From Candidatus Latescibacterota bacterium (lineage in GTDB: Bacteria; Latescibacterota; UBA2968): 64,000 bases of DNA. Within the stretch, counting starts at the first letter, position 1; each line of letters starts with the position of its first letter. The notes beneath the pieces were generated by a model. It worked only from the letters and a program-made list of their open reading frames with translations. It ran no database searches and had not been told where the DNA came from. Below, one piece after another: positions 1 to 19,990 of this stretch. The stretch spans positions 1,856,001-1,920,000 of the forward strand of contig OZ240241.1 in NCBI GenBank assembly GCA_965198115.1. The letters run 5' to 3'. The position numbers and the translations under genes were made by a program.

Positions 1-4
1 CAAC

Positions 5-36
5 GGAGTGTCCAAGAAAACCCCGGGGCGCTGGAC
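5..36. mobile_element. Probable terminal inverted repeat of an IS3-family element (rest outside the window)
   Basis: Minus strand reads GTCCAGCGCCCCGGGGTTTTCTTGGACACTCC, resembling IS629/IS6110-type ends (TGAACCGCCCCGG...GGAGACTC). Flippase homology stops here. Confidence 0.4.
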
Positions 37-39
37 CCT

Positions 40-734: not shown

Positions 735-938
735 GGCACCGAGCTTCCCGCTTCAGAATATGCATCCAACGGCTACTCCAGCCTGCCTCGGCCAGGGCAT
801 ATCGTCGTACGAAGAGTTCCTTACTGATTGTACATCAGTTTCATACCACCATTCTGCCGGATCCTGTTGGCACCTTGTTGCAGCATCTTCGACTCGATGG
901 AATAGGATGCCTGCAGACGAAGCTTGTCGAAGTAAGGT

Positions 939-1580: not shown

Positions 1581-1832
1581 GTTACATCAGGCCGTTCTTC
1601 CCAGGTGTCTCTGGACCAAACGAGGACTGTGGGCACGTTCGCAAGCAACGATTCCAGCATTGTCGTAGGACAATGATCAATGACCAGTAGCCTATATTTT
1701 CCAAGCTTCTATGCGACAACAGGCCATCATCCCATCCAACATCTGGAAACCTTGTCTGGATCCTGCTTCGAAACGTACTGATCACAATCCTCGTGATATG
1801 GGCGGGACACAACCTTTCGTCTGAATTGCTTA

Positions 1833-3095: not shown

Positions 3096-3317
3096 TAGGC
3101 AGCAGGGAGAAAAACCTAACCTGTCGCTGAAAGTAGTCCTCCGATAGATCGCCTACCGAACCGACGTCGAATCGTTAGAAAAACCGAGGTTGCGTCGTCG
3201 AGACGTAAAGCACTAAATCTGAGTGATACTTCGCCAGCACCTTGGTGCGTTTCAAGATACATTCGGACAATTCCGGGTCGGGCACGTTCAGACTCACGCC
3301 CTCCTTTTCGTTCGCCC

Positions 3318-3894
3318 TCGGCAGAAATGCGCGGTCGTAGCGTCGGACCGCAACCGCCTCGCCGCCGAACGCCTCGGCATAGCATCCGACAAGACGGTCC
3401 CAATCGAAGGCATCCGAACCGAAAGACGCGGCATAGGACTGGAAGCTCGCGGAACAGCCCGAATGAACCTTCTGTGTGTGGAGCGACTCCAGGAACTGGT
3501 CCTGTCGACGCAGGTACACGATTGGGGTGTCGGCGAACCCCGCCGTCACTTCCCTGGCCTGGGTCGCCACCACCGGCGCGTTCTCATAACGTGTGTCGGG
3601 GTCACCAGACAGCTCCTCGTGGCTCACCTGATACGTCGCGTGCGCTCGCCTGGCCACGCGCCGGATCTGGGCCGTCAGCCGGTCGACCAGCTTGGCGTCC
3701 CGCTGACGGGTTCGCATCAGGGCCCGGACGTCGGTTGCATCCAGCGGGATGGGGGCAGCGCCTGCCCGTTTGGGCGCCCGCCTGCTCTCCCAGATCGCGT
3801 GCTGAATAGCGGTCGACCCGGTCTTGTGCGTCCAAATATGGAGCAGCAGGCGGGGTCCCGTACGTGCATCTGAATCAGGCGACATACCCAACAC
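3318..3894 (-). pseudogene. Sulfotransferase-like P-loop protein, C-terminally truncated and fused to the transferase remnant
   Basis: LLLHIWTHKTGSTAIQ (family pattern LHIGxxKTGST), SHEEL, IVYLRRQDQFLES. ORF 3175-3894 switches to LIC12162-like sequence after RAFLPR. Confidence 0.65.
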
Positions 3895-3897
3895 CTG

Positions 3898-5436
3898 TCA
3901 GGAACCGCGGATCGCCGCGCGGATCCGCGAGACCGCCCCGTGAATGTCCCGCCGCTCGATCAGGAAGACTTGTGGCAGGGCATAGACTACGACAGAACAG
4001 AAACTCACGTGGAGCGCCCCTCCGGCAGCGAACGAGAGAAGCGGAAGCCCGATCACGTGGGAGGCGAGCCGGGTCGCGCCCAGGGCGGACAGACCGAACA
4101 CGACGATGCACGCGAGCTGATGCCGAAGAAGGGGCCAGAACTCCAGGCTCAGATATCGGGTGCTGAACCAGAGTCGCACATTCGAGAACGCAGCGGCGGC
4201 GACGACGGTCTTGAGCGCCAATCCCACGGCCCCCAGGCTGAGCCCATACCAGGACGTCGGCGCCAGAAGCCAAACCGTCAGCGCGAGCCGGAAGGCCATC
4301 TGCCACAGTCCCAGATCCTTGTGCAACCGTGTCTGCGCGGTCCCGTAGTAGAGTGCACCCAGCATCTGCGAGTACGACCGGAAGAGCGGGTGGATACACA
4401 TCAACGACACCGCCAACCCGGCCTGGGCATACGCAGAGCCACCCAACAACACCGATACGTTTCCCCCTTGTGACGCCATAAACAGCCCAATCAGCGCAGC
4501 AAGGGCGAAAACCACGGGCACGTAGCGGGCAAACAGGCGGGCCATGGCCTCGGTATCCTCTTGCCCGTGGGCTTTCGAGAACTCTCGCATCAGCAGCGGG
4601 GTCAGGGACAACGAGAAGAACGAGCAGAGCAGCCCGACGTCCTGGGACAGGGCAAACACGCCCTGCTCCGCCGACCCGTGGAGTTTCTGGAGCAACCAAC
4701 GCTCCACCACGGTCGTCAGGAATCCCGCGACCGTATAGACGACTAACGGCGAGGAATACGCGTAGAACTCCCTCACGTACCGGGCAGCCTCCGGCCGGTC
4801 GATTCTACCGAGCGAGAACAGGACGTGCCCGTCGCTTAGCACGATCCGTGCCCAGCCGATACACAGGAAAACCAGCAGCAGATAGTGGTAGATGAAGTAC
4901 GTCCACAGGCTGCGGTCCGCGGTGCGAAACACGGCGACTACGAGGACAATGCTCAGGAGCCCCCGATAGACTCTCGTCCGCTCTCCGGCGATAGTGAGAC
5001 CGTAAGCATCGATGTGGTGGTTGAGCAACGCGCTGAGCGCACCCAGCACACCCCAGCCGAGCCCCATCCAGACGTATCCGGATTCCTGCCCCGGCCACAC
5101 CCAGGCCCCCAATCCAGCCCACTGGACCCCGAGAAGCAGGAGCGAGGAGACCGCCGCGACCCCGACGAAGAACGTCCAGTAGAACCGGACTAGCCCCGTC
5201 TCGTCGGGCCGTTGGCTGATCTTGGTGTAGAAGCACAGCGGCGTTCCCATGCTCAGGAGGGACCACATCTCCGTGAAGAACCGGGAGAGAAAGCTGAAGT
5301 CCCCGTAAGCCATCGGGCCCAAGGACCGTGGCACCAGGGCGACCGCCACGAACCGGGCCGCGCCGCCAAGGAGACCGGCGCCCAGTTTGGACAGATACCG
5401 CGAAGAGAGCGGGCTCTCCTCTCCAGCTTCAGACAC
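3898..5436 (-). CDS. wzx: Wzx-type oligosaccharide flippase (MOP superfamily)
   Basis: About 510 aa, many TM segments, PRSLGPMAYGDF motif. Likely GTG start at 5436 overlapping the upstream stop (ORF track start 5475). Confidence 0.85.
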   Translation of the reverse strand: MSEAGEESPLSSRYLSKLGAGLLGGAARFVAVALVPRSLGPMAYGDFSFLSRFFTEMWSLLSMGTPLCFYTKISQRPDETGLVRFYWTFFVGVAAVSSLLLLGVQWAGLGAWVWPGQESGYVWMGLGWGVLGALSALLNHHIDAYGLTIAGERTRVYRGLLSIVLVVAVFRTADRSLWTYFIYHYLLLVFLCIGWARIVLSDGHVLFSLGRIDRPEAARYVREFYAYSSPLVVYTVAGFLTTVVERWLLQKLHGSAEQGVFALSQDVGLLCSFFSLSLTPLLMREFSKAHGQEDTEAMARLFARYVPVVFALAALIGLFMASQGGNVSVLLGGSAYAQAGLAVSLMCIHPLFRSYSQMLGALYYGTAQTRLHKDLGLWQMAFRLALTVWLLAPTSWYGLSLGAVGLALKTVVAAAAFSNVRLWFSTRYLSLEFWPLLRHQLACIVVFGLSALGATRLASHVIGLPLLSFAAGGALHVSFCSVVVYALPQVFLIERRDIHGAVSRIRAAIRGS

Positions 5437-7225
5437 GTCTGCGGCCCGTAGGAAGGAACGGCCGCTGCAGGCCACGCTGGACTTCCCTCCTCAGGAAGCG
5501 CACCCACTGTCGGGGCCACTCACGGTCGGCCTTCGCATACCGGTCGACGAATCGCTCGCGGGCCCTCTGCACCTCGCACGACCACCACCAGGATGGGTCC
5601 TGCTGGATGCGGCTGGCGGCTTCCGTCGGGTCGTGCAAGAGTACGCCAGACGCACGGAGCCTGTCGAAGAACGGCTGTGCTTCCGGCCGCTCCTCCCACG
5701 CTTCCCTGGACCACACAAGCACCGTTGGGACGTTCGACACGAGCGCCTCCAGCACCATCGTGCCACAATGATCGATCACCAGCAGGGCGTGCTTCCTGAG
5801 ACGGTCCGCTGACCGTTTCCCGTCGTCCCACATCAGGTTCGGCACCGCCTCGGTGATCCGATCGCGCACGCACTGGTCGTAGTCCGACGCGAACGGACAG
5901 TAGACGATCCTCGAGACGACGTGGTCGGGCAAAGCCTTGAGGACCTCGATCTGCCGGCCGAAGTAGGTTTCCGCCTGATCCCCTACCGGGGCGACGTTGA
6001 ACCGGCTGAGAAACCGCGAATGCGCGGAAGAAACGAACAGAATGGTCTCGGCTGGAGCAGCGTGCGCCCGTGGGTTGGGCCTCAGGATCTCCGACAGCTC
6101 CGGATCCGGAAGGTTACGTGTTCCTGCCTTCGATCCCGCCCATCCCCAGACCGCGAACACGTCGCTCAACCGTCGCTCGTGGCGTTCGGGAGCGGTGTAC
6201 CGATACTGGCCATAGCCGCCGCCGTGCTGCAAGGCGACCAGACGGGTTCCCCTCCCCGCACGATCGGCGATCACGAATTTGAGGAGGCTGTCGCGATACC
6301 AGCCCGTGGCCGAAACCACGACGGGGGGCACCCGTCTGTAGACCCTGCGGCTCTCTCGCACAGCCTCGGAAAAGCCCTCCAGATAGACCGTCGGCAGGTG
6401 CGAAGGAAGCATCGTCAGCCAGAGCCTCGTGAACTCGTCCGTCCCCGTGAGGTCGCCGAGCGATCTCCGCAGTGCGTGATCCGGACGGGGTTGACCTTGA
6501 GGAAGCGGCGCTTGAGGAATGGGCAACACCCGGAGACCCGAGCCAATCGCGAACCGCGCGTGGATACACAGGTCGCTGTGCATCCCCCACAGCCCCACGT
6601 GCCAGTGCTTCGCCCAGGCCGCTGTCATGATTCGGGACGAGTGGGTAGCTGCCCGCCCCAGGAGGTATCTGACCAAGAGCTTCCACGGCCGCCCGGGCGC
6701 CGGAATCCCGAACGCGTAGTCCTGCGTGCGGAAACGGCACCCGAGAAAAGCCAGGATCTGCGAAGCGATCTGAAGGTTATAGACATCCCTCGAAACGTGC
6801 AGCTGGTAGTCCTTGTAGTCTTGAGGACAGACGAAGGAGGTCGGGGCGAGACACAGCGAATCCAGGTCCGGATACTTGCTGAGTGCGTCCTTTATCATCG
6901 TGTAGCGATCGAACACGACGTGGACGAAATGCACAAGCCACGGACCCAGGAGGATGCGCCAGTAGCGATCGTCCCGACGGATGCCGTGCACCCGGTTCAA
7001 CGCGGACGCAACTGTCGACAGAAGGGACTCCGCCGTTTGGTCGAGTTGCTCGGCGGTCTCGAAGAATCGCACGCGATCGTTCCACGGGTTCCCGAGGACC
7101 TCGTAGTTAAAGCCCTTCAGCCTACCCCGTCGCGAGTAGATCAGACAACTCTTGGTCAGGAACAGGAGGGGCCGACTCACATCCCAGAACTCCTCGAGTG
7201 CCGTCGTGGCCAGAAAGCGTGCCAC
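5429..7225 (-). CDS. LIC12162-family putative transferase
   Basis: N-terminus FLATTALEEFWD, LNRVHG...RYWRILLGPWL, LQHGGGYG, VWGW. Real start probably GTG 7225, not 7483. Confidence 0.75.
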   Translation of the reverse strand: MARFLATTALEEFWDVSRPLLFLTKSCLIYSRRGRLKGFNYEVLGNPWNDRVRFFETAEQLDQTAESLLSTVASALNRVHGIRRDDRYWRILLGPWLVHFVHVVFDRYTMIKDALSKYPDLDSLCLAPTSFVCPQDYKDYQLHVSRDVYNLQIASQILAFLGCRFRTQDYAFGIPAPGRPWKLLVRYLLGRAATHSSRIMTAAWAKHWHVGLWGMHSDLCIHARFAIGSGLRVLPIPQAPLPQGQPRPDHALRRSLGDLTGTDEFTRLWLTMLPSHLPTVYLEGFSEAVRESRRVYRRVPPVVVSATGWYRDSLLKFVIADRAGRGTRLVALQHGGGYGQYRYTAPERHERRLSDVFAVWGWAGSKAGTRNLPDPELSEILRPNPRAHAAPAETILFVSSAHSRFLSRFNVAPVGDQAETYFGRQIEVLKALPDHVVSRIVYCPFASDYDQCVRDRITEAVPNLMWDDGKRSADRLRKHALLVIDHCGTMVLEALVSNVPTVLVWSREAWEERPEAQPFFDRLRASGVLLHDPTEAASRIQQDPSWWWSCEVQRARERFVDRYAKADREWPRQWVRFLRREVQRGLQRPFLPTGRRRV

Positions 7226-7230
7226 CCTCT

Positions 7231-7899
7231 CTACCACCTCTGGCGGAGAATCTGGAACGCCTCCGCCGATCGGAGGTTGGCCGCCATCCCGCGACAGGAG
7301 GCCATCACCTTGACCCCTTCGGCGGAGCGGGGGTTCGGAAACGCTCGGGCCTCCTCGACGTAACAGGCCAGAGCCTTCTGCTTCCGCTCCAGAAAGTCCT
7401 CGATATCCACGAAAAAGTTCGGGTGAAAGGCGCACTCCACGAGCGGAGGCGATTGCTCGGTTGAGGAGGGGACCTCGTAGCACGCGACCATCTCCAGCCC
7501 GCTATGCGCGCCGCTGATCGAGCGCAGACTGATCCACCCCGCTTCGAACGCCGACTGGTGGTCCTGGTGCGGGTCGCCGCGGTGGTTGATGTAGATCCTC
7601 TGGGGATCGAAGTCGGCTACGGCGGTCTCGATCACGCGGAGCACGTCCGAAAAGTGATCCCGCAGCCGCTCGTCAGGAAGCCGCGCGAACTCGACATCCT
7701 GGTAGCCCAAGACCTGCTTGGCATCCAGAGCGTTCGACTCCTCCCGCGCCAGACGCGCCTCGTCGAGCTGGTGGTCGTACACCCGGTTCGCCAGGAAGAG
7801 CACCTTGACACGATCGCCGGCCTCGAGGTGCCTGCAGATCGTACCACCGACCCCAAGGACCTCGTCATCCATGTGGGGCGCAATCACCAGGACCTTCAA
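7231..7899 (-). CDS. PIG-L/LmbE-family N-acetyl-sugar deacetylase
   Basis: VLVIAPHMDDEVLGVGG, DPHQDH, YEVPSSTE, AEAF. Likely TTG start at 7899. Confidence 0.9.
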   Translation of the reverse strand: MKVLVIAPHMDDEVLGVGGTICRHLEAGDRVKVLFLANRVYDHQLDEARLAREESNALDAKQVLGYQDVEFARLPDERLRDHFSDVLRVIETAVADFDPQRIYINHRGDPHQDHQSAFEAGWISLRSISGAHSGLEMVACYEVPSSTEQSPPLVECAFHPNFFVDIEDFLERKQKALACYVEEARAFPNPRSAEGVKVMASCRGMAANLRSAEAFQILRQRW

Positions 7900-7955
7900 T
7901 ACACACTCCAGTAAGGCTTGTCGGTCCCGTCGCGCAGGTCCGTGACGGCCGAACG

Positions 7956-8816
7956 TTACGGATAGTAGGCGCTGCACCTCGGGGCGAAGAACGCGTCGAG
8001 CCTATCCCTTGCGTCTTGGGTGATCACCCGCTCGCGCCCGATGATCCGCTCGTCGACAAGCCCGGCTCCCACCTCGGCGCCATCCTCGTAGAATCGGCCG
8101 AGGAAGGCGGCCATGTTCTCCTTCCGCCTTGCCGCCACGGACTCTGCTGGCAGTCCCTCGAGCACCTTGGTCAACGCCCTCGCCTCGACATCCTCGAACA
8201 GCACACCAAGAAATGCCCCTACCCGCTCCATGAAGCACGTCGGAGACGCGACGAGCTCCTCATACTTGACCACCAGCACATCGGGCTCCGAGAACAGCCG
8301 ATGGTAGTAGTCGAGGACCTCGTCGTAGAAGTAATCAGGCAGGAAGATCGGCTTCCGCTTGGGCAGCGCGAAGGGCGTCCGGGACCAGTCGAGATAGTCT
8401 TCGAATGGCAGGCTCCAGAGTCCCTCTCTTACCCAATGCTTGTAGAGAGACTCCAGCAGCGACACCGGATGCCGGAGGACGATCATAATCCTGGGAGAGC
8501 CGAAGGTCTCCCGGATACGCTTCGCCTGGCTGTAGATGCTGCTCGGATTCACGAAGTTCTCGGACGACAGCAGGTTCACCCGATCCGGGCTGAGCAGGGC
8601 TCGGACCCGCTTTGAGATCTCCGGACGTTCCTGCTCAAACCGGTAGTCGTCGAGGTAGTGCAGCTTGATCAGCCAGTCAGGATAGTTCCCGCAACTCCGC
8701 CCAAGGTAATTCAGATTCGGGTGGCCGTTGAACATCACGTCCTGAAGCCAGCTCGAGGCCGCCTTGCCGAATCCGACGTGTATACACAGTCGGCCCGTCT
8801 CAGTCGGTGTCGTCAC
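7956..8816 (-). CDS. Sulfotransferase-family protein
   Basis: IHVGFGKAASSWLQ (5'-PSB-like), LSSENF, IVLRHPVSLLESLY (3'-PB-like), VKYEEL. Confidence 0.8.
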   Translation of the reverse strand: MTTPTETGRLCIHVGFGKAASSWLQDVMFNGHPNLNYLGRSCGNYPDWLIKLHYLDDYRFEQERPEISKRVRALLSPDRVNLLSSENFVNPSSIYSQAKRIRETFGSPRIMIVLRHPVSLLESLYKHWVREGLWSLPFEDYLDWSRTPFALPKRKPIFLPDYFYDEVLDYYHRLFSEPDVLVVKYEELVASPTCFMERVGAFLGVLFEDVEARALTKVLEGLPAESVAARRKENMAAFLGRFYEDGAEVGAGLVDERIIGRERVITQDARDRLDAFFAPRCSAYYP

Positions 8817-9471
8817 GCGATCCGCCCTGGCTGCCCTCGGCCATCCGTCGCTCGAGGACCTTCTCGGCAAGCCAGAGATCGAAGTCGTCATCGATCTCGA
8901 TATTGCAGTCCCTCGGCACGATCATCGTACCAAGCCGATCACCATACTGTCGTCCTGACCGGATGACCGATGCGTCGACCACGTACACATTCCCGTCATC
9001 ACAGAAGAATCCCTTGACATCCTGACGCCGGTAGACGTCGTGAACCCCGTCCTCGACCTCGCCGAAGGGCTTGTCCTTGCTGATGAACCCGGTCGCCAGA
9101 CAGCTTGGTCTCGTGCTCTCGAACAGAGCGATCGCCCGGTCGATCAACCCGTCGTCGCGTATCGGAGATGTGGGATAGAGGTTCACGAGGATCTCGGCGG
9201 GGCACACGTCGAGGGCGTGGGCCCATACGCTCAGCGAGGTCGCCTCGTCCGTCGCCAGCTCCGGGGGCCGATCCACCACCTCTGCGCCTGTCGACCGCGC
9301 CACGCACGCGATCTCCTCGTCGTCCGTCGAGACGAGAAACCTGTCGAGCCGCGTAGCTTTCTGGGCGGCCTCAATCGTCCAGACGATGAGGGGTTTGCCC
9401 GCGATAGGCTTGACGTTCTTCCTCGGAAGTCCTTTCGATCCGCCGCGGGCGGGGATGAGACCGAGCGTCAA
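8800..9471 (-). CDS. Acylneuraminate (nonulosonate) cytidylyltransferase, NeuA/PseF family
   Basis: LIPARGGSKGLPRKN, VSTDDEEIA, PTSPIR, EIDDDFDL. Confidence 0.92.
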   Translation of the reverse strand: MTLGLIPARGGSKGLPRKNVKPIAGKPLIVWTIEAAQKATRLDRFLVSTDDEEIACVARSTGAEVVDRPPELATDEATSLSVWAHALDVCPAEILVNLYPTSPIRDDGLIDRAIALFESTRPSCLATGFISKDKPFGEVEDGVHDVYRRQDVKGFFCDDGNVYVVDASVIRSGRQYGDRLGTMIVPRDCNIEIDDDFDLWLAEKVLERRMAEGSQGGSRDDTD

Positions 9472-10416
9472 CAGGCTGTTGGGCTCGCTTTCTCTAAGAC
9501 CACGAAATCATAACCCCCTTCGGGATTATCCCGCTCACTTTCATAAATTGGCAGGAGCAATTCCTTGCAGATAGCAATCCACTCACGCTTGTGCCTGCGC
9601 CGTGATTCTCGTTCCATGGAATTCGCCATGCTGATTAAGACCGGCGAAAGCGGACGCAACCCGATATCCCAGATCTGAAGCACTAAGGGGGAAAGATATT
9701 TGCGGTGTTGGATAGGACGGAGCCCCAACCGACCGGCCAGACCTTCCACCTCGTCAATCGCGAGTTGCCAGAACGTTGAATCTGACCGCCCTTCGATTAA
9801 GACGCTGGAGCAGCCGGGCGTAATCTGGCCAATCCGCGCTTCTGTAGGATGGGCAATAACGTTCGAAATCAAGAGATTGGAGGCACAGAAACGCTCGTCC
9901 ACCAGGACTTAGAACCCTGGCTACCTCCGAAAGACAGTGCTCGGGGTTAGGTAGCCAGTAGAGCATGTTGGAGAAAAGGGACTTGATCGACTCGCTCTCG
10001 AATGGCCAAGTCTCAGCCGCGTCGCCAATTTTGTATTCTCCATACAAGTGGAGGAAGTCGGCCTGTCTTCTGAGGTTCTCCTTGTGATCTAGTGCAAAAT
10101 CGTAGACCCACTCAGGCTCTCGCACAATTTGCTCGGTCGACCCGAACCCTGAGTAGTTATCGTAGATGTCTGCGTTTTCCCAGAAGGCATCTAAATGACC
10201 AGCATTAAGGAACTGATCGTAGTCATGACTGAGGGCTCCCCCCGCACACGTAAAGCTGAACAAGCCGTTTCCGGCTCCCACGTCAAGAGAAGGACCTTCG
10301 ATCGCAAAGCCGCAGTTTCGAACGGCTATGGCGTCCCACAGTGCACTCTCTGGTCGAAGCCATTGCAGGTTGAGGAAGTCCTCAAGGAATGTGTCTGAAT
10401 ACGGATCTGAGCTCAA
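9468..10416 (-). pseudogene. Class I SAM-dependent methyltransferase, frameshifted near 9790
   Basis: SLDVGAGNG, EVARVLSPGG. An extra base in AAT CGA A GGG CGG moves the C-terminus (GRSDSTFW...WDIGLRP...FVVLEK) into ORF 9468-9902. Confidence 0.75.
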
Positions 10417-11492
10417 ACCCCAACCGCCTGTTCACGACCAGCCAGCTGACTGACCTTCGCCTTTCCGCCTCCGACGATCTCGATCTCACCTTCCTCCTCC
10501 GACTCACGAGGCAAATAGCAAGCCTGACAGGCCGAGTAGGCCTCAACTCCGAGAGTCTTCCTGTGCAGTTCCCGAGCTTCACGGAACGCGCGTCCATTCC
10601 AGATCTCCAGAATCGTGGATTCACGCACGTCTCCCATGACGTGATCTTCATAGAGGTCGTTGTGGCAAAGGCAGGCTTCGCCTTCGGCGGTGATGAACAG
10701 ACGCTGCCACGGGACGTGGCAGACGAAGTTCGGCTTGTAGGTGATCTGCTCGGGATCATCCTCGCCCAGATAATCGACGAGCGCCCCGCTCGCGACCATA
10801 TCCACGAAAGGGCCGTACGCATCGAAGAAGGCTTGGGGATCATCCTTGATCGCGGGCCAGACGCCCTGGATTTTCACGACCGGCTTAGCAGATCCGAGTC
10901 GCTCCTTAATCGCCTTGAACGCCTTGAGTTTCTCGATCAGCTCGTCATACTTCGCCGGGTACCGGATCTCGTTGTAGGTTTCACCGATTCCGTCCGCGCT
11001 GATCGTGATCCAGTCCATCCCGATTCGGACGAACTTCTCGAACAGCTCCGGCGTGAGCTTGGTTGCATTCGTGAGCGTAGAAACCTCCCGGATTCCCACC
11101 TCTTTCGCCAAGCGGGCGGCTTCATAGAACTGTGGATGAAGAGATGGCTCTCCCCTGAGGCTTAGCCGAATCGAGAAGACGCCTCCCTTCCCGGCCTCGT
11201 GCATGATCTTCTCGATCAGATCCCAGTTGAGAAGCTGTGCCGTTACGTCCTTTTTGAACCTTTCCGTAATGGTGTAGCACATGGGGCAGCGAAGGTTGCA
11301 AACAGCCGCGAGTTCCATGTCGATGTGCTCGGGATACCGCCTCGGCCATCCGAACCTAGGGAAGTAGTGCCACCGAAAACGGTTTCCGATGTAACCGAGC
11401 AGGTGGCCTTTTCCACGTTTCAGGTGGAATCGAAAACTGTCCAGCTTCGAGGACAACGTGAGCATGTCCCTGTTTATGCTAAAAGTAGCCAC
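10413..11492 (-). CDS. Radical SAM protein with SPASM/twitch domain
   Basis: CNLRCPMC, GEPSLHP, TNATKL; C-terminal CHVPW...CLC...CQAC. Confidence 0.92.
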   Translation of the reverse strand: MATFSINRDMLTLSSKLDSFRFHLKRGKGHLLGYIGNRFRWHYFPRFGWPRRYPEHIDMELAAVCNLRCPMCYTITERFKKDVTAQLLNWDLIEKIMHEAGKGGVFSIRLSLRGEPSLHPQFYEAARLAKEVGIREVSTLTNATKLTPELFEKFVRIGMDWITISADGIGETYNEIRYPAKYDELIEKLKAFKAIKERLGSAKPVVKIQGVWPAIKDDPQAFFDAYGPFVDMVASGALVDYLGEDDPEQITYKPNFVCHVPWQRLFITAEGEACLCHNDLYEDHVMGDVRESTILEIWNGRAFREARELHRKTLGVEAYSACQACYLPRESEEEGEIEIVGGGKAKVSQLAGREQAVGV

Positions 11493-11495
11493 CCT

Positions 11496-12530
11496 CTACA
11501 CACCTCTTGATAGCAGCTGTTGTCGAACGATGTCCAGAGTCCTCTGACATCCGTCTCCCGGAACGATCTGTTTCCCCGTCCGCGAGTGCCTACTCAGAAC
11601 GCACGGGTCATCCAGCACCTTAATCGAAGATCGAATGACCTCCAGAGAGGTGTTCAGTCCGTTTCCAGCGCAAATGCCAAAACCTCTCCGTTCGAATTCC
11701 TCGCCCTGAAGTCGCTCGTGCTCATCTTCGTAGAGCACGACCGCAGGTGTCCCTACGCACGCCATCTCGTAGAGCGTGTTGCCGCCCGCGGTGATACCCA
11801 TATCGGAATCAAGCAGAAAATCGCTCAGCTCGGGCGGACACACGTGAGGGTGAATGTGTGATCTCGGTCGCGCGAATTCGAGCACCTCATCCCCAAACTC
11901 GAATCCCGGCCCGATAACCACGTCGACTTGGAGCGATTCTTCATCAGACAGTGATTCCAAGACTCTCATCGTAGTCCGTAACCTGTCGACTCCACCCATC
12001 GAAACGACGATCTTTCGCACGCCTGCGTCGAATGCCCGTTCTTCAAGCCGCAATCTTTGAAACCGCTCGTTCAAGCTCAGGAATTCGGCGCCAGCGAAGA
12101 CTTCGGCCGTCGAACCGGGGTAGTCGTGAAAGGAACGAACGATCGAAGTACTGATGATGACGTCCGGGTTAATCGTCCTTCCACCCAGTTCATCGATGCA
12201 CACAACGCAGCCCGCCCAGTTACGCAGCGCCTGAATCTGTTCCTCCGACACCGAGCGAAAGTTCGTCACCGCGATCCTGGCCCCCTCGGCGCATGGATCT
12301 TCGCCCAGGCGACTCAGCACATCGGGCTCCACCGAGCTGAGTGGACGCGCCCAGTCGGCAATCGGCGCCAAATCGGGGTCTACGTGGGCGTATCCTACGG
12401 CTTCCAAGCACGACCACGTGGCTGCTTGAAAAAGGCCGCCCATCTCCACTATATGTCCGGATCCGATCTCGCTAGTGCCCTCAGATAGGAGGACCACGCG
12501 CTGGGACTCGGACACTAAAGATCGTCCCAC
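11496..12530 (-). CDS. PseG/SpsG-family UDP-sugar hydrolase (GT-B fold)
   Basis: IGSGHI, VCIDE, VVSMGGVD, VVIGPGF, ITAGGNTLYEMACVGTP; adjacent to the NeuB-like gene. Confidence 0.8.
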   Translation of the reverse strand: MGRSLVSESQRVVLLSEGTSEIGSGHIVEMGGLFQAATWSCLEAVGYAHVDPDLAPIADWARPLSSVEPDVLSRLGEDPCAEGARIAVTNFRSVSEEQIQALRNWAGCVVCIDELGGRTINPDVIISTSIVRSFHDYPGSTAEVFAGAEFLSLNERFQRLRLEERAFDAGVRKIVVSMGGVDRLRTTMRVLESLSDEESLQVDVVIGPGFEFGDEVLEFARPRSHIHPHVCPPELSDFLLDSDMGITAGGNTLYEMACVGTPAVVLYEDEHERLQGEEFERRGFGICAGNGLNTSLEVIRSSIKVLDDPCVLSRHSRTGKQIVPGDGCQRTLDIVRQQLLSRGV

Positions 12531-13546
12531 GTGATCGGATGGTCCGCCGCGACGTCGCGCCTGAGCGTTCGTCCCAAAGCGATATCCAGGTTCTGCGGAG
12601 CGATACCGTGGCCCGGTCTCTTGATGATCACGTCATCGGCCGACAGGACGTCATCTCTGCTGAGATCTTGAGTGGCGACGAGGCCTTTCCTCGTGTCGGA
12701 TCGCATCTCCGTCTCGGTGGCCGCCGGATTCTTGAATCCGGTACCCAGCATAGACTCCGCCTCCCGTACACTCTCGACGAGGCGTTTCATATCACCCGGA
12801 TCTGCCGAGAAGAAGGCGTCTGGAACATCGAGGTCTCGGCTCAAGACAAAGTGCTTCTCGATCGCCACGGCGCCGAGGGCGACAGCGGCGACCGCGGCCG
12901 TATTCGAACGCGTGTGATCGGACAGACCGACGTGGACGGGAAACGCCCTCGAATACATATCGATCACGCGCAGATCGAGCTGGGACGGGTCTTCGATCGG
13001 GTAATTGGACACGCACTGGAGAACGACTAGGTCCTCGCTCCCCGCTTCGCGATAGGCACGAACGGCGTTGTCCACCTCGGCGAGTGTGGCCATCCCCGTC
13101 GAGAAAATGACCGGCTTTCCAAGCTCACCGACGTGACGAATGAAGGGAAAGTTCGTCAGATCGTCCGACCCGACCTTGTGCACGGACACACCCACACGTT
13201 CCAGCAGGGCTACGTCATCCGGATGACTCGGCGTCGAAAAAGGTACCAGCCCCCGTTCCCTGCAGCGGTCAAAGATGAGACGATGAAGGTCCTCGGAAAT
13301 CTCGTACTGAAGGAATTCCTCGAACTGGTTGACACCGCCTGCTTCGTTCGGGAAGTCCACGTCTCTTGTCGTGATCGTTTCCGCGCGAAACGTCTGGATC
13401 TTCAGCGCGTCCACACCGCATTCAGCTGCAGCGTCGACCGACTCGAGCGCTTCGGCTTCGCTGCTGAAGTTGTAGCCGAGCTCCGCGATCACGAAAACAG
13501 GATGGCCGGGGCCGATGGTCTTTCCTTCGATGTGTATGTCACGCAT
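12515..13546 (-). CDS. Nonulosonate synthase (NeuB/PseI/SpsE family) with C-terminal SAF/antifreeze domain
   Basis: VFVIAELG, KIQTF, KVGSDDLTN, STGMATL, CVSNYP, GLSDHT, IEKHF, KRPGHGIAP. Likely ATG at 13546. Confidence 0.93.
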   Translation of the reverse strand: MRDIHIEGKTIGPGHPVFVIAELGYNFSSEAEALESVDAAAECGVDALKIQTFRAETITTRDVDFPNEAGGVNQFEEFLQYEISEDLHRLIFDRCRERGLVPFSTPSHPDDVALLERVGVSVHKVGSDDLTNFPFIRHVGELGKPVIFSTGMATLAEVDNAVRAYREAGSEDLVVLQCVSNYPIEDPSQLDLRVIDMYSRAFPVHVGLSDHTRSNTAAVAAVALGAVAIEKHFVLSRDLDVPDAFFSADPGDMKRLVESVREAESMLGTGFKNPAATETEMRSDTRKGLVATQDLSRDDVLSADDVIIKRPGHGIAPQNLDIALGRTLRRDVAADHPITWDDL

Positions 13547-14258
13547 GTTCAGAAAATGCGCCGTCCAAAACACACCTGTAGCAGTCATAAACAAGGTTCG
13601 CGTTCGATCCGCTGAACAAGAAATCAAGGGCTGACATGTGTGAGATGAACGGCTCGTTGGTCTGAGGATAGGTCGGATGAATGAAATCGTGATAGACGAC
13701 TCGGATCCCTCTCGTCTTGAAGGCGTCGAAGTCCAGATAGTTCCTTCCGTCAGGTCCTGAGATGTAGACGGACGCCCCCGTCGCGAGGCACAGCCGAAGG
13801 ATGAGATCGCTTCCGCTGCACTCGGGTTTTGCGATCTCCGAGGAGAGTCGCGTTACTGTATCGATTCCCAGCGCGAGTGCGAGTCTCCGTGAAAGTGACA
13901 GGTTCAGGTCGACGAGTCGCTCGTGATGGGTCTCGATGACCTCGGAGATCCACGGGAAACACGTTGCGAAACCGGGTGCCGATCCGTAGTGCGTAGAAAG
14001 CGCCGTCAGGTATTTCCTGCGCCAGTTGCTCTGTTCGTCGATCAGGACCTCGTTAATCCTCTGAGTGTAGCGTCCCTTCGTCTGCACGGGCACGGTGATC
14101 CACTGCGTTCCGTCCCTGGTTCTTATTTTGTTGCGGTTCTCGAAGTAGCGCTTCTTGAACTGCACATCGTCCAGGTGCACGAATAGATCGACCTGGCTCA
14201 TCTTGTTAAAGTATCCGATCCAAGGCGCGTGCTCGGGCTGTTGTATGGCGACGATCAT
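13539..14258 (-). CDS. WbqC-family protein
   Basis: IQQPEHAPWIGYFNKM, DDVQF, NRNKI, WITVPV, YISGPDGRNYL, YPQ...FISHMSALDFLF. Confidence 0.92.
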   Translation of the reverse strand: MIVAIQQPEHAPWIGYFNKMSQVDLFVHLDDVQFKKRYFENRNKIRTRDGTQWITVPVQTKGRYTQRINEVLIDEQSNWRRKYLTALSTHYGSAPGFATCFPWISEVIETHHERLVDLNLSLSRRLALALGIDTVTRLSSEIAKPECSGSDLILRLCLATGASVYISGPDGRNYLDFDAFKTRGIRVVYHDFIHPTYPQTNEPFISHMSALDFLFSGSNANLVYDCYRCVLDGAFSEHA

Positions 14259-14278
14259 TGAGGGTCTTAGTAGGTTGT

Positions 14279-15232
14279 TTAGAGCCCGCTCCGAATATGG
14301 TCCGCTCCCTTTTCCTCTTCCTCCTGCCTCTGAGCCCGCTCTCTGTACCAGTCAATGTACCGACGGACCCCCTCTTCGAAAATCGTCTGCGGGACCCAGC
14401 CCAGCTCCTGCTTCGCACGCTCGCTGGAGATCTCCTTGCCCGAGAAATCCCCGGGCCGGGCTGGGACGTGTTCGATCTCCACGTTGCCGAGAATCTTCTT
14501 GATGGTTTCCGCTATCTGTAGAATGGAAACCTTCTCGGAGCCGTCGAGATTGTATATGCGGTGCTTCTCAGTGCATTTCAGCGCCTTGACGTTCCCGAGC
14601 GCCAGGTCCTCGACGTAGACGAACTTGCGGAACTGAAGACCGTCACCCGCAATCGTCAGGGGTTCGCCGTTCAGGGCTTTGTTGACGAAGATCGGAACGA
14701 CAGCGCCGTCGCGGGCTCGCGGGCCGTAGGGAATCCCATAGCGAAGCACTGTGGTCTTGATGTCATACAGTTCCGCATAGCTTTTGGAGTAGTACTCGCC
14801 GACGATCTTGGTTGCCGTATAAAGATGTGATGGAGAGTGCAGTGGAGTCGATTCATCCACGTCACTGCTGTCTGCCTCGCTATATACCCACGTTGTACTG
14901 CCGTAGATAACCTGGCGAATGTCCGTCCGCCGCGCCGCCTCGAGCACATTGATGGTCCCGCGGACGTTGATCTCCTCCGAGTAGTGCGGCGCTTCGAAGA
15001 CATCCTTGACGTCCGCGATCGCCGCAAGGTGAAACACGGCATAGACGCCTGACATGGCGCCGATCAGAGCCTGGAGATCGAGAATGCTGCCAGGCACATA
15101 CTCGACGTCGGGTCGCTTCAGATACGTGTTATGAGTAAGGTCGAAAACCCGTACTTCGATTTCGTTGTCTCGTAACTTGTCGACAACGTGGGACCCGATG
15201 AATCCCAGTCCCCCCGTAACCAGAACCTTCAC
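14279..15232 (-). CDS. NAD-dependent nucleotide-sugar epimerase/dehydratase
   Basis: VLVTGGLGFIG, HLAA, YTATK, LRYGIPYGPR. Likely GTG start at 15232 with GAGG RBS. Confidence 0.9.
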   Translation of the reverse strand: MKVLVTGGLGFIGSHVVDKLRDNEIEVRVFDLTHNTYLKRPDVEYVPGSILDLQALIGAMSGVYAVFHLAAIADVKDVFEAPHYSEEINVRGTINVLEAARRTDIRQVIYGSTTWVYSEADSSDVDESTPLHSPSHLYTATKIVGEYYSKSYAELYDIKTTVLRYGIPYGPRARDGAVVPIFVNKALNGEPLTIAGDGLQFRKFVYVEDLALGNVKALKCTEKHRIYNLDGSEKVSILQIAETIKKILGNVEIEHVPARPGDFSGKEISSERAKQELGWVPQTIFEEGVRRYIDWYRERAQRQEEEEKGADHIRSGL

Positions 15233-15251
15233 TGTCCCTCCTCGATCTTCG

Positions 15252-16271
15252 TTATTCCGCGCCGTGGTAGTAGAGCGGCACGCACCAGTGGTTCTCGGCG
15301 AGCCAGTCCGTGTTCGGCAGCACCGTGTCGTGACCCAGAATGCGATGGCAGGGCTGGCCATAGACCTTGCCCGTCGACTTCTCGATGGGGTCGAACGTGA
15401 TGTACTTGTATAAACCCGACGTCATCCCGTCGGGAAGCACCAGTCTGCCCGGATGCGCGTGGTCCAGTTCGCTCCGCGCGTAGTCGTTCTTCCATCGTAC
15501 GATCTCCTCCATCCGCTCCGCCTGGACCACGCCGACGGCCGCCGTGATCTCGCTCATGCGGAAGTTCAGGCCGGTCACTTCGTGCTCGAACTTCCCGTAA
15601 TTCCTGAACTTGCGGGCATAGGCCTCGAGCTCGCTGTCCCCTGTCACCAGCATGCCGCCTTCGCCTGTGGAGACCGTCTTCGTGGCGTAGAAGGAGTACA
15701 CGCCGGCATCCCCCCACGTCCCGGGCTTCTTGCCGTTCCAGTCGGCGCCGTGGGCGTGGGCGCAGTCCTCGAGCAGCCTGATATCATTGTCCCTGCAGTA
15801 GGCCGCGATCTTTTCGATCTCGAAGGCGATGTGCCCCCCGATGTGCACGACCCACGCGGCTTTCGGTCTGTGCATCTCTGCTTTCCGAACGAAGTCGTCG
15901 AACGAGACGCACAGGTCGTCCCGGTTACAGTCCACGAAGACGACCTCGCCTCCAGCGCTGAGGACCGCGTTCGGCGTGGCCATAAACGTGTTGGACGGAC
16001 AGAGCACCTTGTGGCCGGTTACTTCGTAGAAACTGAGTGCCGCAAGAGCGCCACCCGCCCAGCTCGAGAAGGCGACGGATGGCAGTCCGTTCCACGCGCC
16101 CCACTGGGCCTCGAATTGCTCAGTCAGCCGTCCCTCGGACCAGCGCTGGGATTCGAACACCTCATCGATCAAACCGTGCACACGGTCGCGATCTCTCTGA
16201 TCGAACCCGATTCTGAACTGGCTGGCATCCACCGCTTGAATCGTCTGAGTCACGTTCCCCTCGCCGTTCAC
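15252..16271 (-). CDS. DegT/DnrJ/EryC1/StrS PLP-dependent sugar aminotransferase
   Basis: EDCAHAHGA, YSFYATKTVSTGEGGM (PLP lysine), GLNFRMSE. Confidence 0.92.
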   Translation of the reverse strand: MNGEGNVTQTIQAVDASQFRIGFDQRDRDRVHGLIDEVFESQRWSEGRLTEQFEAQWGAWNGLPSVAFSSWAGGALAALSFYEVTGHKVLCPSNTFMATPNAVLSAGGEVVFVDCNRDDLCVSFDDFVRKAEMHRPKAAWVVHIGGHIAFEIEKIAAYCRDNDIRLLEDCAHAHGADWNGKKPGTWGDAGVYSFYATKTVSTGEGGMLVTGDSELEAYARKFRNYGKFEHEVTGLNFRMSEITAAVGVVQAERMEEIVRWKNDYARSELDHAHPGRLVLPDGMTSGLYKYITFDPIEKSTGKVYGQPCHRILGHDTVLPNTDWLAENHWCVPLYYHGAE

Positions 16272-16888
16272 GAAAGCTTCCAGATCAGCCGTTCCTCAAC
16301 GCCGACATCGATCAGTTGGTGCTCGGAATCGTCGAGGTTTTCCAGGTCCGTGATGAGCACCGCATCGAATTCCAGTCCGGAGAGCTGCGCCTTCCGTCGG
16401 ACTGGAAGCCCGAAGCAGTCCTGGCCGTCTGTCTTGTCGTCGACCACCCCAACCAGGCGAATGTCCGCCAGCTCGGATTCCACGCCCACCAGAATGCGGA
16501 CGATGTCGCTTGCTCCATAGAGCAACACATTCCGTACACCGTCGGCCGCCATGCTTCGGATGCAGTCGCGGAGCTTCGACTCGACACGCGAATAGAAGTC
16601 TAACGTGAATCGCAGGAAGCCGTACGTCAGCTGCGACTTCATCTTCATCCCCGCGGGCGTGAGGATATACAGATACGCGCGCTTGTCTGGATTCTGGCGC
16701 ACACGCTGAAACTTGACGTAACCCTTTTCCAGGAGCTTGTGCAGGCAGTAGTTGACCTTCTTGAGGTTGAGCCCTGTCTCTTTCGCGAGCTCGCGCTGCG
16801 TCGTGTTCTCGCGATTCTCAAGGGCCTCCATGACGGCGAGCAGGCCGAGGTCGTCTCTTGTCTGAGAGCTTTGTTTGAGGATTTCCAT
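16268..16888 (-). CDS. MarR-family EPS-associated winged-helix regulator with C-terminal Rossmann-like domain
   Basis: TQRELAKETGLNLKKVNYCLHKLLEKGYVK...YLYILTPAG; then VLLYGASD, VGVVDD. Confidence 0.88.
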   Translation of the reverse strand: MEILKQSSQTRDDLGLLAVMEALENRENTTQRELAKETGLNLKKVNYCLHKLLEKGYVKFQRVRQNPDKRAYLYILTPAGMKMKSQLTYGFLRFTLDFYSRVESKLRDCIRSMAADGVRNVLLYGASDIVRILVGVESELADIRLVGVVDDKTDGQDCFGLPVRRKAQLSGLEFDAVLITDLENLDDSEHQLIDVGVEERLIWKLS

Positions 16889-16893
16889 GGGTC

Positions 16894-17835
16894 TCAGGCC
16901 GCGCGCGGGAGAAGGTCGGAAACCGTACGGGCAACACCTTCCTGGACGGACGTCGTAGGCGACCAATCCAACGTCTTCATCGCCAGCGCGTTGTCCAGCA
17001 CACTTCTCGACAGATCTCCGGCCCGAGGGCCGCACTCGTCGGGCTGAACGCCGGGCCTGTCGAGTGCCTGGACGACAAGACTCAGAAGATCCCTCGTCGT
17101 CGTCTCGACGGACGTCGAGATGTTGACCGTGGTACCGTCCCCGGCCGATAAGGCCGCCACGTTGGCATCGGCCACTTCACCAACGTAGACGTAGTCCCGC
17201 GTACACCCTTCATCTCCCGCTGCTCTGGCGCCATAGAGGGTGGGGCGGGATCCACCGAGGATCGCATCGCAGAAAAGCGCCACGACGCCGGCTTCGCCCG
17301 CTGCGCTCTGCCGGGGTCCGTAGACGTTGCTGTATCTCAGGATGGTGTAGGCCAGACCGTGATGGCGCTCGAAGAACTGCACATACGACTCACAGGTCGC
17401 CTTCGAGATCCCATAGGGCGTCGACGGACGGAAAGGTGCGCCCTCTGGGGTCGGGAAAACATCCGCATCCCCGTAGACCGTTCCCCCCGACGAGGCGAAA
17501 ATGACTTTCTCCACACCCGCGGCAACGCTCTGCTGGAGAACGTTTATCGTGCCGGCGATGTTGATGTCGGCGTCCTCGGCGGGATGCCTAACGGAGTAGG
17601 AAACGCTGAGCTGAGCGGCCTGGTGATTCACCAGTTCCGGTTGAAAGTCCAAGAACAGATCACCCAGGTCCGCGGATCTGATGTCCAGTTCGGAGAACCG
17701 GCAACCCGGGTTCACTTTTTCCCGGCGACCGCTGGACAGGTCGTCCACGACGATTACCTCGTGGCCCAGCCTCACGTAGGCGTCGACCACGTGAGACCCG
17801 ATGAAACCCGCGCCACCGGTAACCAAGATCCTCAT
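16894..17835 (-). CDS. UDP-glucose 4-epimerase-like extended SDR
   Basis: ILVTGGAGFIGSH, HQAAQLSV, SSGGTVYG, YGISK, RYSNVYGPRQ, GEAGVV. Confidence 0.9.
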   Translation of the reverse strand: MRILVTGGAGFIGSHVVDAYVRLGHEVIVVDDLSSGRREKVNPGCRFSELDIRSADLGDLFLDFQPELVNHQAAQLSVSYSVRHPAEDADINIAGTINVLQQSVAAGVEKVIFASSGGTVYGDADVFPTPEGAPFRPSTPYGISKATCESYVQFFERHHGLAYTILRYSNVYGPRQSAAGEAGVVALFCDAILGGSRPTLYGARAAGDEGCTRDYVYVGEVADANVAALSAGDGTTVNISTSVETTTRDLLSLVVQALDRPGVQPDECGPRAGDLSRSVLDNALAMKTLDWSPTTSVQEGVARTVSDLLPRAA

Positions 17836-19939: not shown

Positions 19940-19990
19940 GACCGAGTCACTCCCACGCCGTTTTCATCTGGCAACCGACACTACCACACC

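Follow-up and report, generated by a model that had tools for sequence, protein, structure and literature searches.

A candidate pathway for an aminoacylated nonulosonic acid in an operon of a Latescibacterota bacterium

Which sugar is made by an operon that combines a NeuB-family ulosonate synthase with WbqC, a radical S-adenosylmethionine (SAM) enzyme and a LIC12162 protein? We analyzed such an operon on the minus strand of a 64,000-nucleotide stretch of Candidatus Latescibacterota bacterium (contig OZ240241.1, positions 1,856,001 to 1,920,000; hereafter the window), whose genome is a single contig of 8.43 Mb with 59% GC. An earlier interpretation of the letters alone (hereafter the sequence-only reading) had proposed a non-canonical nonulosonate pathway. 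That proposal was supported by a separate NeuB clade and by the lack of PseB, PseH, LegB and NeuC in related loci. We conclude that an aminoacylated ulosonate is probably made here without a 4,6-dehydratase. We further propose, at somewhat less than even confidence, that the operon makes, activates and transfers a sialic acid-like nine-carbon sugar whose N5 bears an amino acid and which has one more amine, most likely at C9. A 9-amino, 5-N-aminoacyl nonulosonate would be our single best guess. The proposal draws on the genes present and their synteny, on the families in which they fall, and on catalytic motifs and predicted folds, from which the chemical steps would follow.

The operon and its core genes

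The operon is real: fifteen minus-strand genes run from position 17835 down to 3175, and the intergenic gaps at the chosen starts and stops range from -17 to +56 bases, 13 of the 14 being 20 bases or less. In order, the unit encodes SDR2, a MarR_EPS regulator, DegT, the core short-chain dehydrogenase/reductase (SDR), WbqC, NeuB, a PseG-like protein, a radical SAM/SPASM protein, a methyltransferase, NeuA, a sulfotransferase, PIG-L and LIC12162. All genes named by the sequence-only reading were found in this tightly packed operon, and Pfam and NCBIfam scans agreed with the first-pass family labels. The span given earlier (5429..17835) encloses these genes, but its left edge did not hold: the operon continues to a membrane-protein gene (3898-5436) and an open reading frame (ORF) at 3175-3894. 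LIC12162 is the only operon protein above its own NCBIfam cut-off. The genes that carry the proposal are as follows.

15252..16253, minus strand: DegT aminotransferase of a HygL-like clade (PF01041), with Asp163 and Lys192 of the pyridoxal phosphate site present
14279..15232, minus strand: HygJ-like extended SDR, a predicted NAD-dependent sugar dehydrogenase, with Thr113, Tyr138 and Lys142, and with Trp115
13539..14258, minus strand: WbqC (PF08889, 230 bits), a predicted amino-acid ligase resembling BshC and class I aminoacyl-tRNA synthetases
12515..13546, minus strand: NeuB-family ulosonate synthase (PF03102, 247.8 bits, plus SAF), with Tyr25-Asn26-Phe27
11496..12515, minus strand: PseG/SpsG-like protein of the GT-B type, a predicted nucleoside diphosphate (NDP)-sugar hydrolase (TIGR03590, 91.5 against a cut-off of 153.55)
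10413..11492, minus strand: BtrN-like radical SAM/SPASM protein with a four-cysteine auxiliary cluster (PF04055 and PF13186), a predicted dehydrogenase
8800..9471, minus strand: NeuA-like cytidine monophosphate (CMP)-ulosonate synthetase (PF02348, 88.4 bits; PseF, 110.2 against 205.7)
7231..7899, minus strand: PIG-L/BshB-like de-N-acetylase with intact metal motifs (PF02585; best NCBIfam model BshB1, 56.4 against 182.5)
5429..7237, minus strand: LIC12162-family protein with a predicted C-terminal GT-B fold (TIGR04331, 377.8 against 225)

A separate synthase clade

The window synthase scored below the NCBIfam cut-offs of both NeuB (285.6 against 399.65) and PseI (257.3 against 340.25). In a tree made by a quick method from every third group member, with rows shorter than 290 amino acids dropped and PseI references as annotated by NCBI, it fell in a 20-row clade of 112 rows, apart from the PseI, NeuB and LegI-like groups (SH-like approximate likelihood ratio test, SH-aLRT, 99). 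A homologue search yielded 119 relatives at 53-67% identity, with Tyr-Asn-Phe where NeuB enzymes have x-Asn-His. Further synthase loci came from a motif scan of metagenome contigs (71) and from a genome collection (at least six, in metagenome-assembled genomes of Deltaproteobacteria, Nitrospira, Elusimicrobiota and Acidobacteriota).

Active-site residues were assigned from the available parts of PMC6795526 and PMC11339185. E22, K49, Q51, K124, S209, H211, E230, H232 and D243 were kept in 52/52 sequences and R310 in 51/52; these comprise the ligands of the metal and of phosphoenolpyruvate (PEP) and the arginine of the SAF domain. The latter, Arg310 here, is described in the accessible portion of PMC11339185 as binding the N-acyl carbonyl. 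Three changes of the pocket are found in all or nearly all of the 57 clade members, namely His27 to Phe, Phe107 to Ser, Ala or Gly, and the gain of Asp128. Tyr25 and Glu77 occur together in 52/52 members of the HygJ/L-type group and are absent from the five 6-deoxy-type members.

The cassette is patchy in its distribution: clade-level NeuB was found in none of 24 genomes of the same family and in one genome of the same order (G036), and among 168 genomes of the phylum only three have the window type of DegT. Viral contigs held 10 NeuB loci at 32-39% identity, and those placed in the tree lay outside the clade. G036 (L014-L015) has four NeuB genes; the one that belongs to the clade lies in the same region as another NeuB, to which it is unrelated.

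A conserved cassette in several phyla

Related loci were merged at 90% NeuB identity into 60 (L021 was set aside), 12 of which have 5 kb on both sides; 41 NeuB loci over the same span, without the clade member L075, served as controls. The radical SAM gene was present in 12/12 related and 0/41 control loci, the HygL-like DegT and LIC12162 each in 11/12 and 0/41, the core SDR in 10/12 and 0/41, WbqC and the PseG-like gene each in 12/12 and 4/41, PIG-L in 11/12 and 8/41, and the methyltransferase in 7/12 and 0/41, contrasts that are descriptive and inflated and count for less in our favor than they seem to, the related loci being kin and the thresholds having been set on the window proteins. Close homologues of NeuA occurred in 10 of the 12 related loci, and a looser synteny count concurred. 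The WbqC-NeuB-PseG-radical SAM-NeuA-LIC12162 synteny that the sequence-only reading had put forward is conserved in the related loci, and the gene set of the cassette recurs in bacteria of several phyla. Other neighbors are variable among the related loci and include B12 radical SAM enzymes, carbamoyltransferases, further methyltransferases and a formyltransferase. In one Nitrospirota locus (L258:2572-13845), LIC12162 is found with the membrane protein of the operon (36%), a sister SDR and a radical SAM gene of a more distant kind, and no NeuB lies within 20 kb.

The genes of known routes showed the opposite distribution. PseB was found in 0/12 related and 5/41 control loci, LegB in 0/12 and 26/41, NeuC in 0/12 and 36/41, and NeuD-like genes in 0/12 and 20/41; PseH was in 0/12 related loci, and PseB, PseH, LegB and NeuC were each in 0/60. 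The earlier statement that no recognizable N-acetyltransferase is present is right for the operon, as no GNAT or hexapeptide acyltransferase family was matched among the 28 ORFs scanned (window 108-30220), but elsewhere in the genome a NeuD-like gene reaches 137.5 against a cut-off of 160.8, the best NeuD match in the whole genome. The best whole-genome matches to PseH and PseB were 41.2 against 93.1 and 173.4 against 407.75, the latter being a PglF-like gene outside the operon. The genome has a single NeuB, and its sole UDP-N-acetylglucosamine (UDP-GlcNAc) 2-epimerase passes the WecB (non-hydrolysing) model.

A predicted amino-acid exchange by WbqC and PIG-L

The structural model of WbqC (predicted local distance difference test, pLDDT, 91.6) found its best fold match among 48,161 chains in BshC (Z 14.7, root-mean-square deviation 3.1, 225 aligned residues), followed by lysyl-tRNA synthetase (Z 12.1), other class I tRNA synthetases and MshC (Z 7.4). 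This comparison, and that of LIC12162 below, was made by VIA-align alone. The WbqC profile, compared with the sequences of the PDB, gave no match below E 0.5, and the ESM Atlas gave no usable match beyond the WbqC family itself. From the predicted fold, aminoacyl transfer by WbqC is plausible. In the BshB/BshC and MshB/MshC pairs, deacetylation is followed by aminoacylation.

The nitrogen on which WbqC would act can be approached through the front ends with which it occurs. Five deeper clade members keep the radical SAM gene, WbqC, PIG-L, the PseG-like gene and a cytidylyltransferase, and differ in the front end. L021 has PseB and PseC above cut-off and a GNAT-PseG fusion alongside WbqC and PIG-L, and the archaeal L075 has PseB-like SDRs as its front end. 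In Rhizobium sp. WYJ-E13, Neorhizobium galegae HAMBI 1141 and G582, the front end consists of LegB (over the cut-off in the two tested) and a reductase-like SDR, and the cassette contains no aminotransferase. L254 and L256 combine WbqC and PIG-L with LegB, with no aminotransferase in the stretch covered, and in L235 the only DegT lies upstream, among rml-type genes. Since WbqC and PIG-L are kept under PseB/PseC/GNAT, LegB or HygJ/HygL-like front ends, they would act on N2/N5, the only nitrogen common to all. WbqC together with PIG-L likely swaps the N-acetyl group for an amino acid, as far as the modeled folds can tell, and deacetylation followed by aminoacylation of the shared nitrogen would be the simplest reading.

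A role of WbqC as a stand-in for PseH or another N-acetyltransferase is not supported: in L021 it occurs beside a GNAT, and in L254 and L256 it occurs with no aminotransferase in the stretch covered. The same applies to the earlier placing of WbqC at the N-acetyltransferase position of the pathway. The same genome holds a second WbqC gene (L002:9666-13493, at about 3,514,700-3,518,500) next to a PIG-L gene apparently cut by an insertion element and then a DegT gene. This DegT belongs to a clade seen as a second aminotransferase in 7/60 related loci. The second WbqC-PIG-L-DegT group supports the pairing of WbqC with PIG-L. A related exchange, by a deacetylase and a formyltransferase at the nucleotide-sugar level, is described for Ca. 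Kuenenia in the accessible part of bioRxiv 2026.04.20.719630.

The SDR-DegT pair of the front end

At residues 113-115, the core SDR has Thr-Thr-Trp where the compared LegB-type dehydratases have Thr-Ser-Glu, and it scored 49.3 against a cut-off of 407.75 on the PseB model and 134.5 against 475 on the LegB model. Judged by these residues, it is probably no 4,6-dehydratase. The label of epimerase/dehydratase that it first received is not upheld, given the replacement of the dehydratase Glu by Trp115 and its grouping with a hygromycin B-type SDR.

The latter was reached through a plasmid search with the window DegT, which led to an adjacent SDR-DegT pair in Streptomyces sp. SAT1 (NZ_CP016083; L179). 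The pair is accompanied by an APH(7'') gene (95%), a dehydroquinate synthase-like gene, a dioxygenase and an SIS isomerase. These neighbors suggest that the cluster is of the hygromycin B type, and we therefore take the pair, from the cluster content and the function attributed to HygJ and HygL, to be HygJ/HygL. The heptose of hygromycin B bears its amine on the exocyclic C6, and Li et al. (2020) reportedly found that HygJ and HygL oxidize and aminate an NDP-heptose. In the SDR tree, a 39-row clade of 102 rows joins the window and SAT1 proteins (SH-aLRT 99); a more careful tree, which included RmlB, GMD, Fcl and PseB among its 45 rows, gave support of 91/68 for 13 chosen rows and of 98/96 with one more. 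In the DegT tree, a 26-row clade of 97 rows joins the two DegTs (SH-aLRT 95), and the second DegT of the SAT1 cluster falls in a different clade. Within the host genome, the core SDR is the best match to the SAT1 SDR (162 bits, 116 for the next). The window SDR and DegT are thus adjacent genes, each in one clade with its hygromycin B-type counterpart, a grouping that would favor oxidation and amination at C6. Both HygJ and HygL are required for hygromycin B according to the available part of PMC7481536.

The pair is also adjacent in Anabaena and in 12 of 13 loci of Acidimicrobiia (L204-L216), the thirteenth stopping at a contig edge; there it is recurrent, the SDR being carried by 14 of 251 genomes. 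Its adjacency in both groups marks it as a mobile module. Three further arrangements of these genes were seen. In two Acidimicrobiia loci inspected, the pair stands before a GT2 gene, a layout that resembles Arn-type amino-sugar lipid modification. A plasmid of Anabaena cylindrica (L178:12001-17009) carries a HygL/HygJ-like pair with a sulfotransferase, GalE and a NUDIX hydrolase, possibly a small amino-sugar pathway. L108:3795-6350 and L137:2600-9164, two related loci, have a HygL-like DegT but no such SDR; the additional radical SAM genes found there may take the place of the oxidase.

Hydrolase, radical SAM enzyme and transferase

The family profile of the PseG-like protein matched PseG (3hbm) at E 5e-11, and glycosyltransferases matched alike. 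Its His is kept in the window protein and is Asp in many relatives.

The best solved relative of the radical SAM family is BtrN (E 8e-12). The CxxxCxxC motif and the auxiliary-cluster cysteines amount to seven that are invariant in 51/51 rows; the next column has Cys in 28/51 and Ala in the window protein. NeoN/HygY-type radical SAM epimerases are recognized by an extra invariant hydrogen-donor cysteine, so the lack of an eighth invariant cysteine favors oxidation over epimerization of that type, and the epimerase role is disfavored as well by an identity of 26% over 113 residues to the radical SAM protein of L179. A deoxygenating pair with the SDR, of the AprD4/AprD3 type, is also disfavored, as L021 has the radical SAM gene and no spare SDR in 21 kb. 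The gene persists where an aminotransferase (L254, L256) or a spare SDR (L021) is lacking, so the enzyme may act on the aminoacylated sugar. According to the accessible part of PMC13707489, BtrN is a dehydrogenase whose partner is a DegT-type aminotransferase.

The LIC12162 model (pLDDT 85) matched GT-B proteins over residues 210-592, with Z from 15.2 to 10.7 over 50 GT-B rows; the N-terminal 210 residues were barely covered. UDP-GlcNAc 2-epimerases ranked first, followed by PglH-type proteins, TagF/TarL and a CMP-bound capsule polymerase. The GT-B part of the earlier expectation of a GT-B/sialyltransferase-like fold is thus predicted, but no sialyltransferase was among the 50 listed rows, although one may rank below them. 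This lack and the top rank of the epimerases weigh somewhat against a transferase, and LIC12162 could be an epimerase instead. In the sister cassettes of WYJ-E13, HAMBI 1141 and G582, an MptE/Maf-like gene stands where LIC12162 would be, a replacement that supports the transferase role, and the model makes LIC12162 a likely ulosonate transferase. The ESM Atlas returned only LIC12162 clusters.

Proposed pathway and alternative explanations

In the proposed pathway, the HygJ-like SDR would oxidize an NDP-N-acetylhexosamine without dehydration, if analogous to HygJ at the exocyclic C6. Amination of the resulting carbonyl by the HygL-like DegT would give a new amine without a dedicated acetyltransferase to cap it. 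PIG-L would strip the N2-acetyl group and WbqC would ligate an amino acid to the freed amine, in the manner of BshB/BshC and MshB/MshC. The BtrN-like enzyme may oxidize a CH-OH or CH-NH2, located either in the sugar itself or in the newly attached aminoacyl group. The SDR/DegT, PIG-L/WbqC and radical SAM steps may come in any order. The PseG-like protein would then free the sugar, the divergent NeuB condense it with PEP and NeuA form the CMP-sugar; LIC12162 would transfer the activated sugar, and the membrane protein would flip the unit. In a wider and more doubtful formulation, the cassettes would form a widespread, modular family in which WbqC, as a tRNA synthetase-like ligase, joins with the deacetylase to attach the amino acid at N5, the BtrN-like enzyme oxidizes the sugar, and this branch adds a free amine at C9 through HygJ/HygL chemistry of the aminoglycoside type. 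Such a family would make a net neutral or cationic ulosonic acid, a new backbone class with a dedicated synthase clade and with LIC12162 as a new GT-B family.

Several observations weigh against amination at C6 or against the cassette as a closed pathway. The window proteins share 33% identity with the SAT1 pair (SDR and DegT), near the family background; a GalE-like paralogue reaches a BLAST score similar to that of the core SDR; and the DegT margin within the genome is 156 to 155 bits. The SAT1 SDR has Met at the position of the catalytic Lys of the window protein, and the substrate of HygJ is a heptose, not a hexose. The two Acidimicrobiia loci inspected have the pair before a GT2 gene in an Arn-like layout, which fits amination at C4 equally. 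Glu68, at the site that binds O6 of N-acetylmannosamine, was rejected as a marker of a C6 amine, as it is present in 3/5 of the 6-deoxy-type members. A hexapeptide acyltransferase type is present in 3/12 related loci (19/41 controls), and the PglF-like and NeuD-like genes elsewhere in the genome could supply their functions in trans.

The alternative to be taken most seriously, although rather unlikely, is that the same pathway runs with the SDR and DegT acting at C4. This would give a 5,7-diamino nonulosonate in which the 9-hydroxyl is retained and either N5 or N7 is aminoacylated. Extended SDR and DegT enzymes usually act at C4, the Thr-Tyr-Lys triad is intact while the dehydratase Glu is replaced, PseG-like hydrolases normally take 2,4-diamino sugars, and the Arn-like DegT-SDR-GT2 layout of Acidimicrobiia would suit it. 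Against this, the SDR and DegT group with the hygromycin B-type pair and not with PseC/LegC or with GalE/UXS-like rows. The Arn-like layout would also suit an ArnA/UXS-like oxidative decarboxylase, by which a UDP-N-acetylhexosaminuronic acid would become a 2,4-diamino-pentose and then an eight-carbon ulosonate. Trp115 could occupy the C6 pocket, and UXS structures are among the PDB matches of the core SDR (E 5e-33). This route is nevertheless quite improbable: UXS/ArnA-like paralogues, labeled by known motifs, branch elsewhere in the SDR trees, and the UDP-sugar 6-dehydrogenase family is absent from the 111 neighbor proteins scanned.

An NDP-heptose substrate, leading to a ten-carbon ulosonic acid with a 9-amine, is unlikely. 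It would agree with the only anchored relatives of the pair, which reportedly act on NDP-heptose (a substrate that appears in the available part of PMC13707489), and with ten-carbon CMP-ulosonates of unassigned genetic origin in Magnetospirillum. Outside the operon, the genome holds a heptose-isomerase-like gene, and in L121 a nucleotidyltransferase-HAD gene is found 4 kb upstream. However, no heptose isomerase was matched in the 60 related loci, which favors a hexosamine, and the presence of PIG-L and of the N-acyl-binding Arg implies that the sugar is N-acetylated. Least probable of all is an ordinary di-N-acetyl pseudaminic or legionaminic acid, or N-acetylneuraminic acid, made with a dehydratase and an acetyltransferase from outside the cluster, in the manner of the sps route of B. 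subtilis. The best solved relative of the window NeuB is SpsE, the sps route also has a PseG-like protein and makes legionaminic acid (PMC7439481, in its available part), and the PglF-like (173 bits on PseB) and NeuD-like genes are at hand. Yet the synthase clade is separate and its pocket altered, the deacetylase, ligase and radical SAM enzyme are retained across phyla, PseB, PseH and NeuD all stay under cut-off in the genome, and its only 2-epimerase is of the WecB type. Finally, the cassette might be decaying in this strain, so that no complete glycan is made. The frameshifted methyltransferase described below and the fragments of membrane-protein and LIC12162 genes with transposases directly downstream would fit, but the nine core genes are full-length with their catalytic motifs present and the methyltransferase is optional in related loci, making decay quite unlikely too. 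We retain the 9-amino, 5-N-aminoacyl nonulosonate as the tentative product.

Comparison with known systems

By its sequences, the system works like a pseudaminic or legionaminic pathway, yet fails the defining tests of both. It shares with the pseudaminic route an NDP-sugar oxidoreductase, a DegT, a predicted PseG-like hydrolase, a PEP synthase and a CMP synthetase, and the lack of a hydrolysing 2-epimerase. It differs in having no PseB, PseC or PseH over cut-off, in a synthase outside the PseI clade and in the addition of PIG-L, WbqC, the radical SAM enzyme and LIC12162. With the legionaminic routes (LegB/C/H/G/I/F of C. jejuni; SpsM/C/D/G/E/F of B. subtilis, from the accessible portion of PMC7439481) it has the back end in common, including the PseG-like protein of sps, and the rhizobial sister cassettes begin with LegB and a nucleotidyltransferase; the window has no LegB, LegC, NeuD or NeuC/LegG, and its synthase lies outside the LegI-like group.

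The destomic-acid step of hygromycin B (HygJ/HygL) resembles the front end in its adjacent SDR-DegT pair, in both clades and in shared motifs, whereas the low identity and the Met for Lys in the SAT1 SDR set them apart, as does a heptose of a secreted antibiotic against a precursor of a surface glycan. The bacillithiol and mycothiol pathways also have a PIG-L-type deacetylase adjoining a protein of the BshC, MshC or class I aminoacyl-tRNA synthetase fold; WbqC differs in length (239 amino acids, 540 in BshC), in identity (12%) and in its substrate, which would be a nucleotide-sugar. BtrN of butirosin biosynthesis shares the CxxxCxxC motif, the four-cysteine auxiliary cluster and the lack of an extra invariant Cys, but the overall similarity is weak and the window-type enzyme is also found in cassettes without an aminotransferase. 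The Ca. Kuenenia cluster (bioRxiv 2026.04.20.719630) likewise joins deacetylation and re-acylation within a nonulosonate pathway and yields free-amine products. Its front end is of the legionaminic type and its acyl group is formyl, and WbqC and radical SAM are not mentioned in the part of the source available.

We found no paper describing the cassette; subscription carbohydrate-chemistry journals and supplements lay mostly outside the search, so a solved structure may exist. Neither PMC8208679 nor PMC4758666 mentions it in the portions available. No paper was found that joins nonulosonic acid with radical SAM or WbqC with BshC, and none on a 9-amino or glycyl nonulosonic or pseudaminic O-antigen. 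O-antigen genetics would suggest glycine as a candidate amino acid for WbqC, a link that our literature search did not find, wbqC with glycine and transferase returning only unrelated papers. Mass-spectrometric surveys have revealed many bacterial ulosonic acids without known genes, including free-amine and ten-carbon forms (PMC8157484 and bioRxiv 2026.04.20.719630, each in its accessible part). A defined gene set over several phyla now predicts a new class of such acids. It also provides first testable functions for three orphan families, with WbqC as a BshC-like ligase, LIC12162 as a GT-B ulosonate transferase and the BtrN-like radical SAM enzyme acting in surface glycans. The sister cassettes of the cultured Rhizobium sp. 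WYJ-E13 and Neorhizobium galegae HAMBI 1141 make the shared core testable. If the proposal is right, an amine-bearing analogue of sialic acid would shift the surface charge and could alter the binding of phages, lectins and peptides.

Accessory genes and genomic surroundings

The remaining genes of the operon are the following.

16894..17835, minus strand: SDR2, a GalE-like extended SDR (PF01370; best NCBIfam model galE, 159.8 against 262.3)
16268..16888, minus strand: MarR_EPS-type winged-helix regulator (TIGR04176, 84.9 against a cut-off of 88)
9468..10416, minus strand: class I SAM methyltransferase, frameshifted, in two overlapping frames with a one-base break near 9792
7956..8816, minus strand: sulfotransferase-like accessory gene (PF00685/PF13469)
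3898..5436, minus strand: membrane protein, probably a Wzx-type flippase, with at least seven hydrophobic segments and no Pfam or NCBIfam match
3175..3894, minus strand: further ORF beyond the membrane-protein gene

SDR2 is the probable first gene of the unit. It is outside the conserved core and branches away from the core SDR in the SDR trees. A promoter-like site precedes it at 17901-17873, one of two such sites found against 1.7 expected, and neither promoter nor terminator scans gave an excess over shuffled sequence. None of the sequencing runs listed as carrying window DNA was an RNA dataset. A homologue of MarR_EPS occurs in 3/23 related loci and one of the membrane protein in 5/23; the latter has a weak, composition-biased profile match to the flippase BpsH.

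Eleven homologues of the methyltransferase read through in one frame. The contigs of runs X1 and X2 have identical letters at the frameshift, with no gap, and come from one sample, possibly the source of this DNA itself. The gene is a probable pseudogene, and methylation, which the sequence-only reading had included in the product, has probably been lost in this strain. Its sulfate tailoring is likewise not part of the conserved system: the sulfotransferase occurs in 0/12 related and 0/41 control loci and in 0/60 of the wider related set, which marks sulfation, as predicted from this gene, as a local extra.

Downstream of the operon (window 1-3900 and L001:15400-20000) lie several transposases, pieces of LIC12162 and remnants of another copy of the membrane-protein gene (65% identity). 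Past these, the glycan region goes on with sulfotransferase, B12 radical SAM and flavin adenine dinucleotide (FAD)-oxidase genes. Upstream, a minus-strand block at 17950-22376 encodes a methyltransferase, a fatty-acid-desaturase-like protein (best NCBIfam model GntB, far under cut-off), a methyltransferase-GT2 fusion and a GDP-fucose-synthase-like SDR. Elsewhere on the host contig, 20 tRNA genes form an array on one strand at 2870558-2872531, typical of the tRNA arrays of mobile elements.

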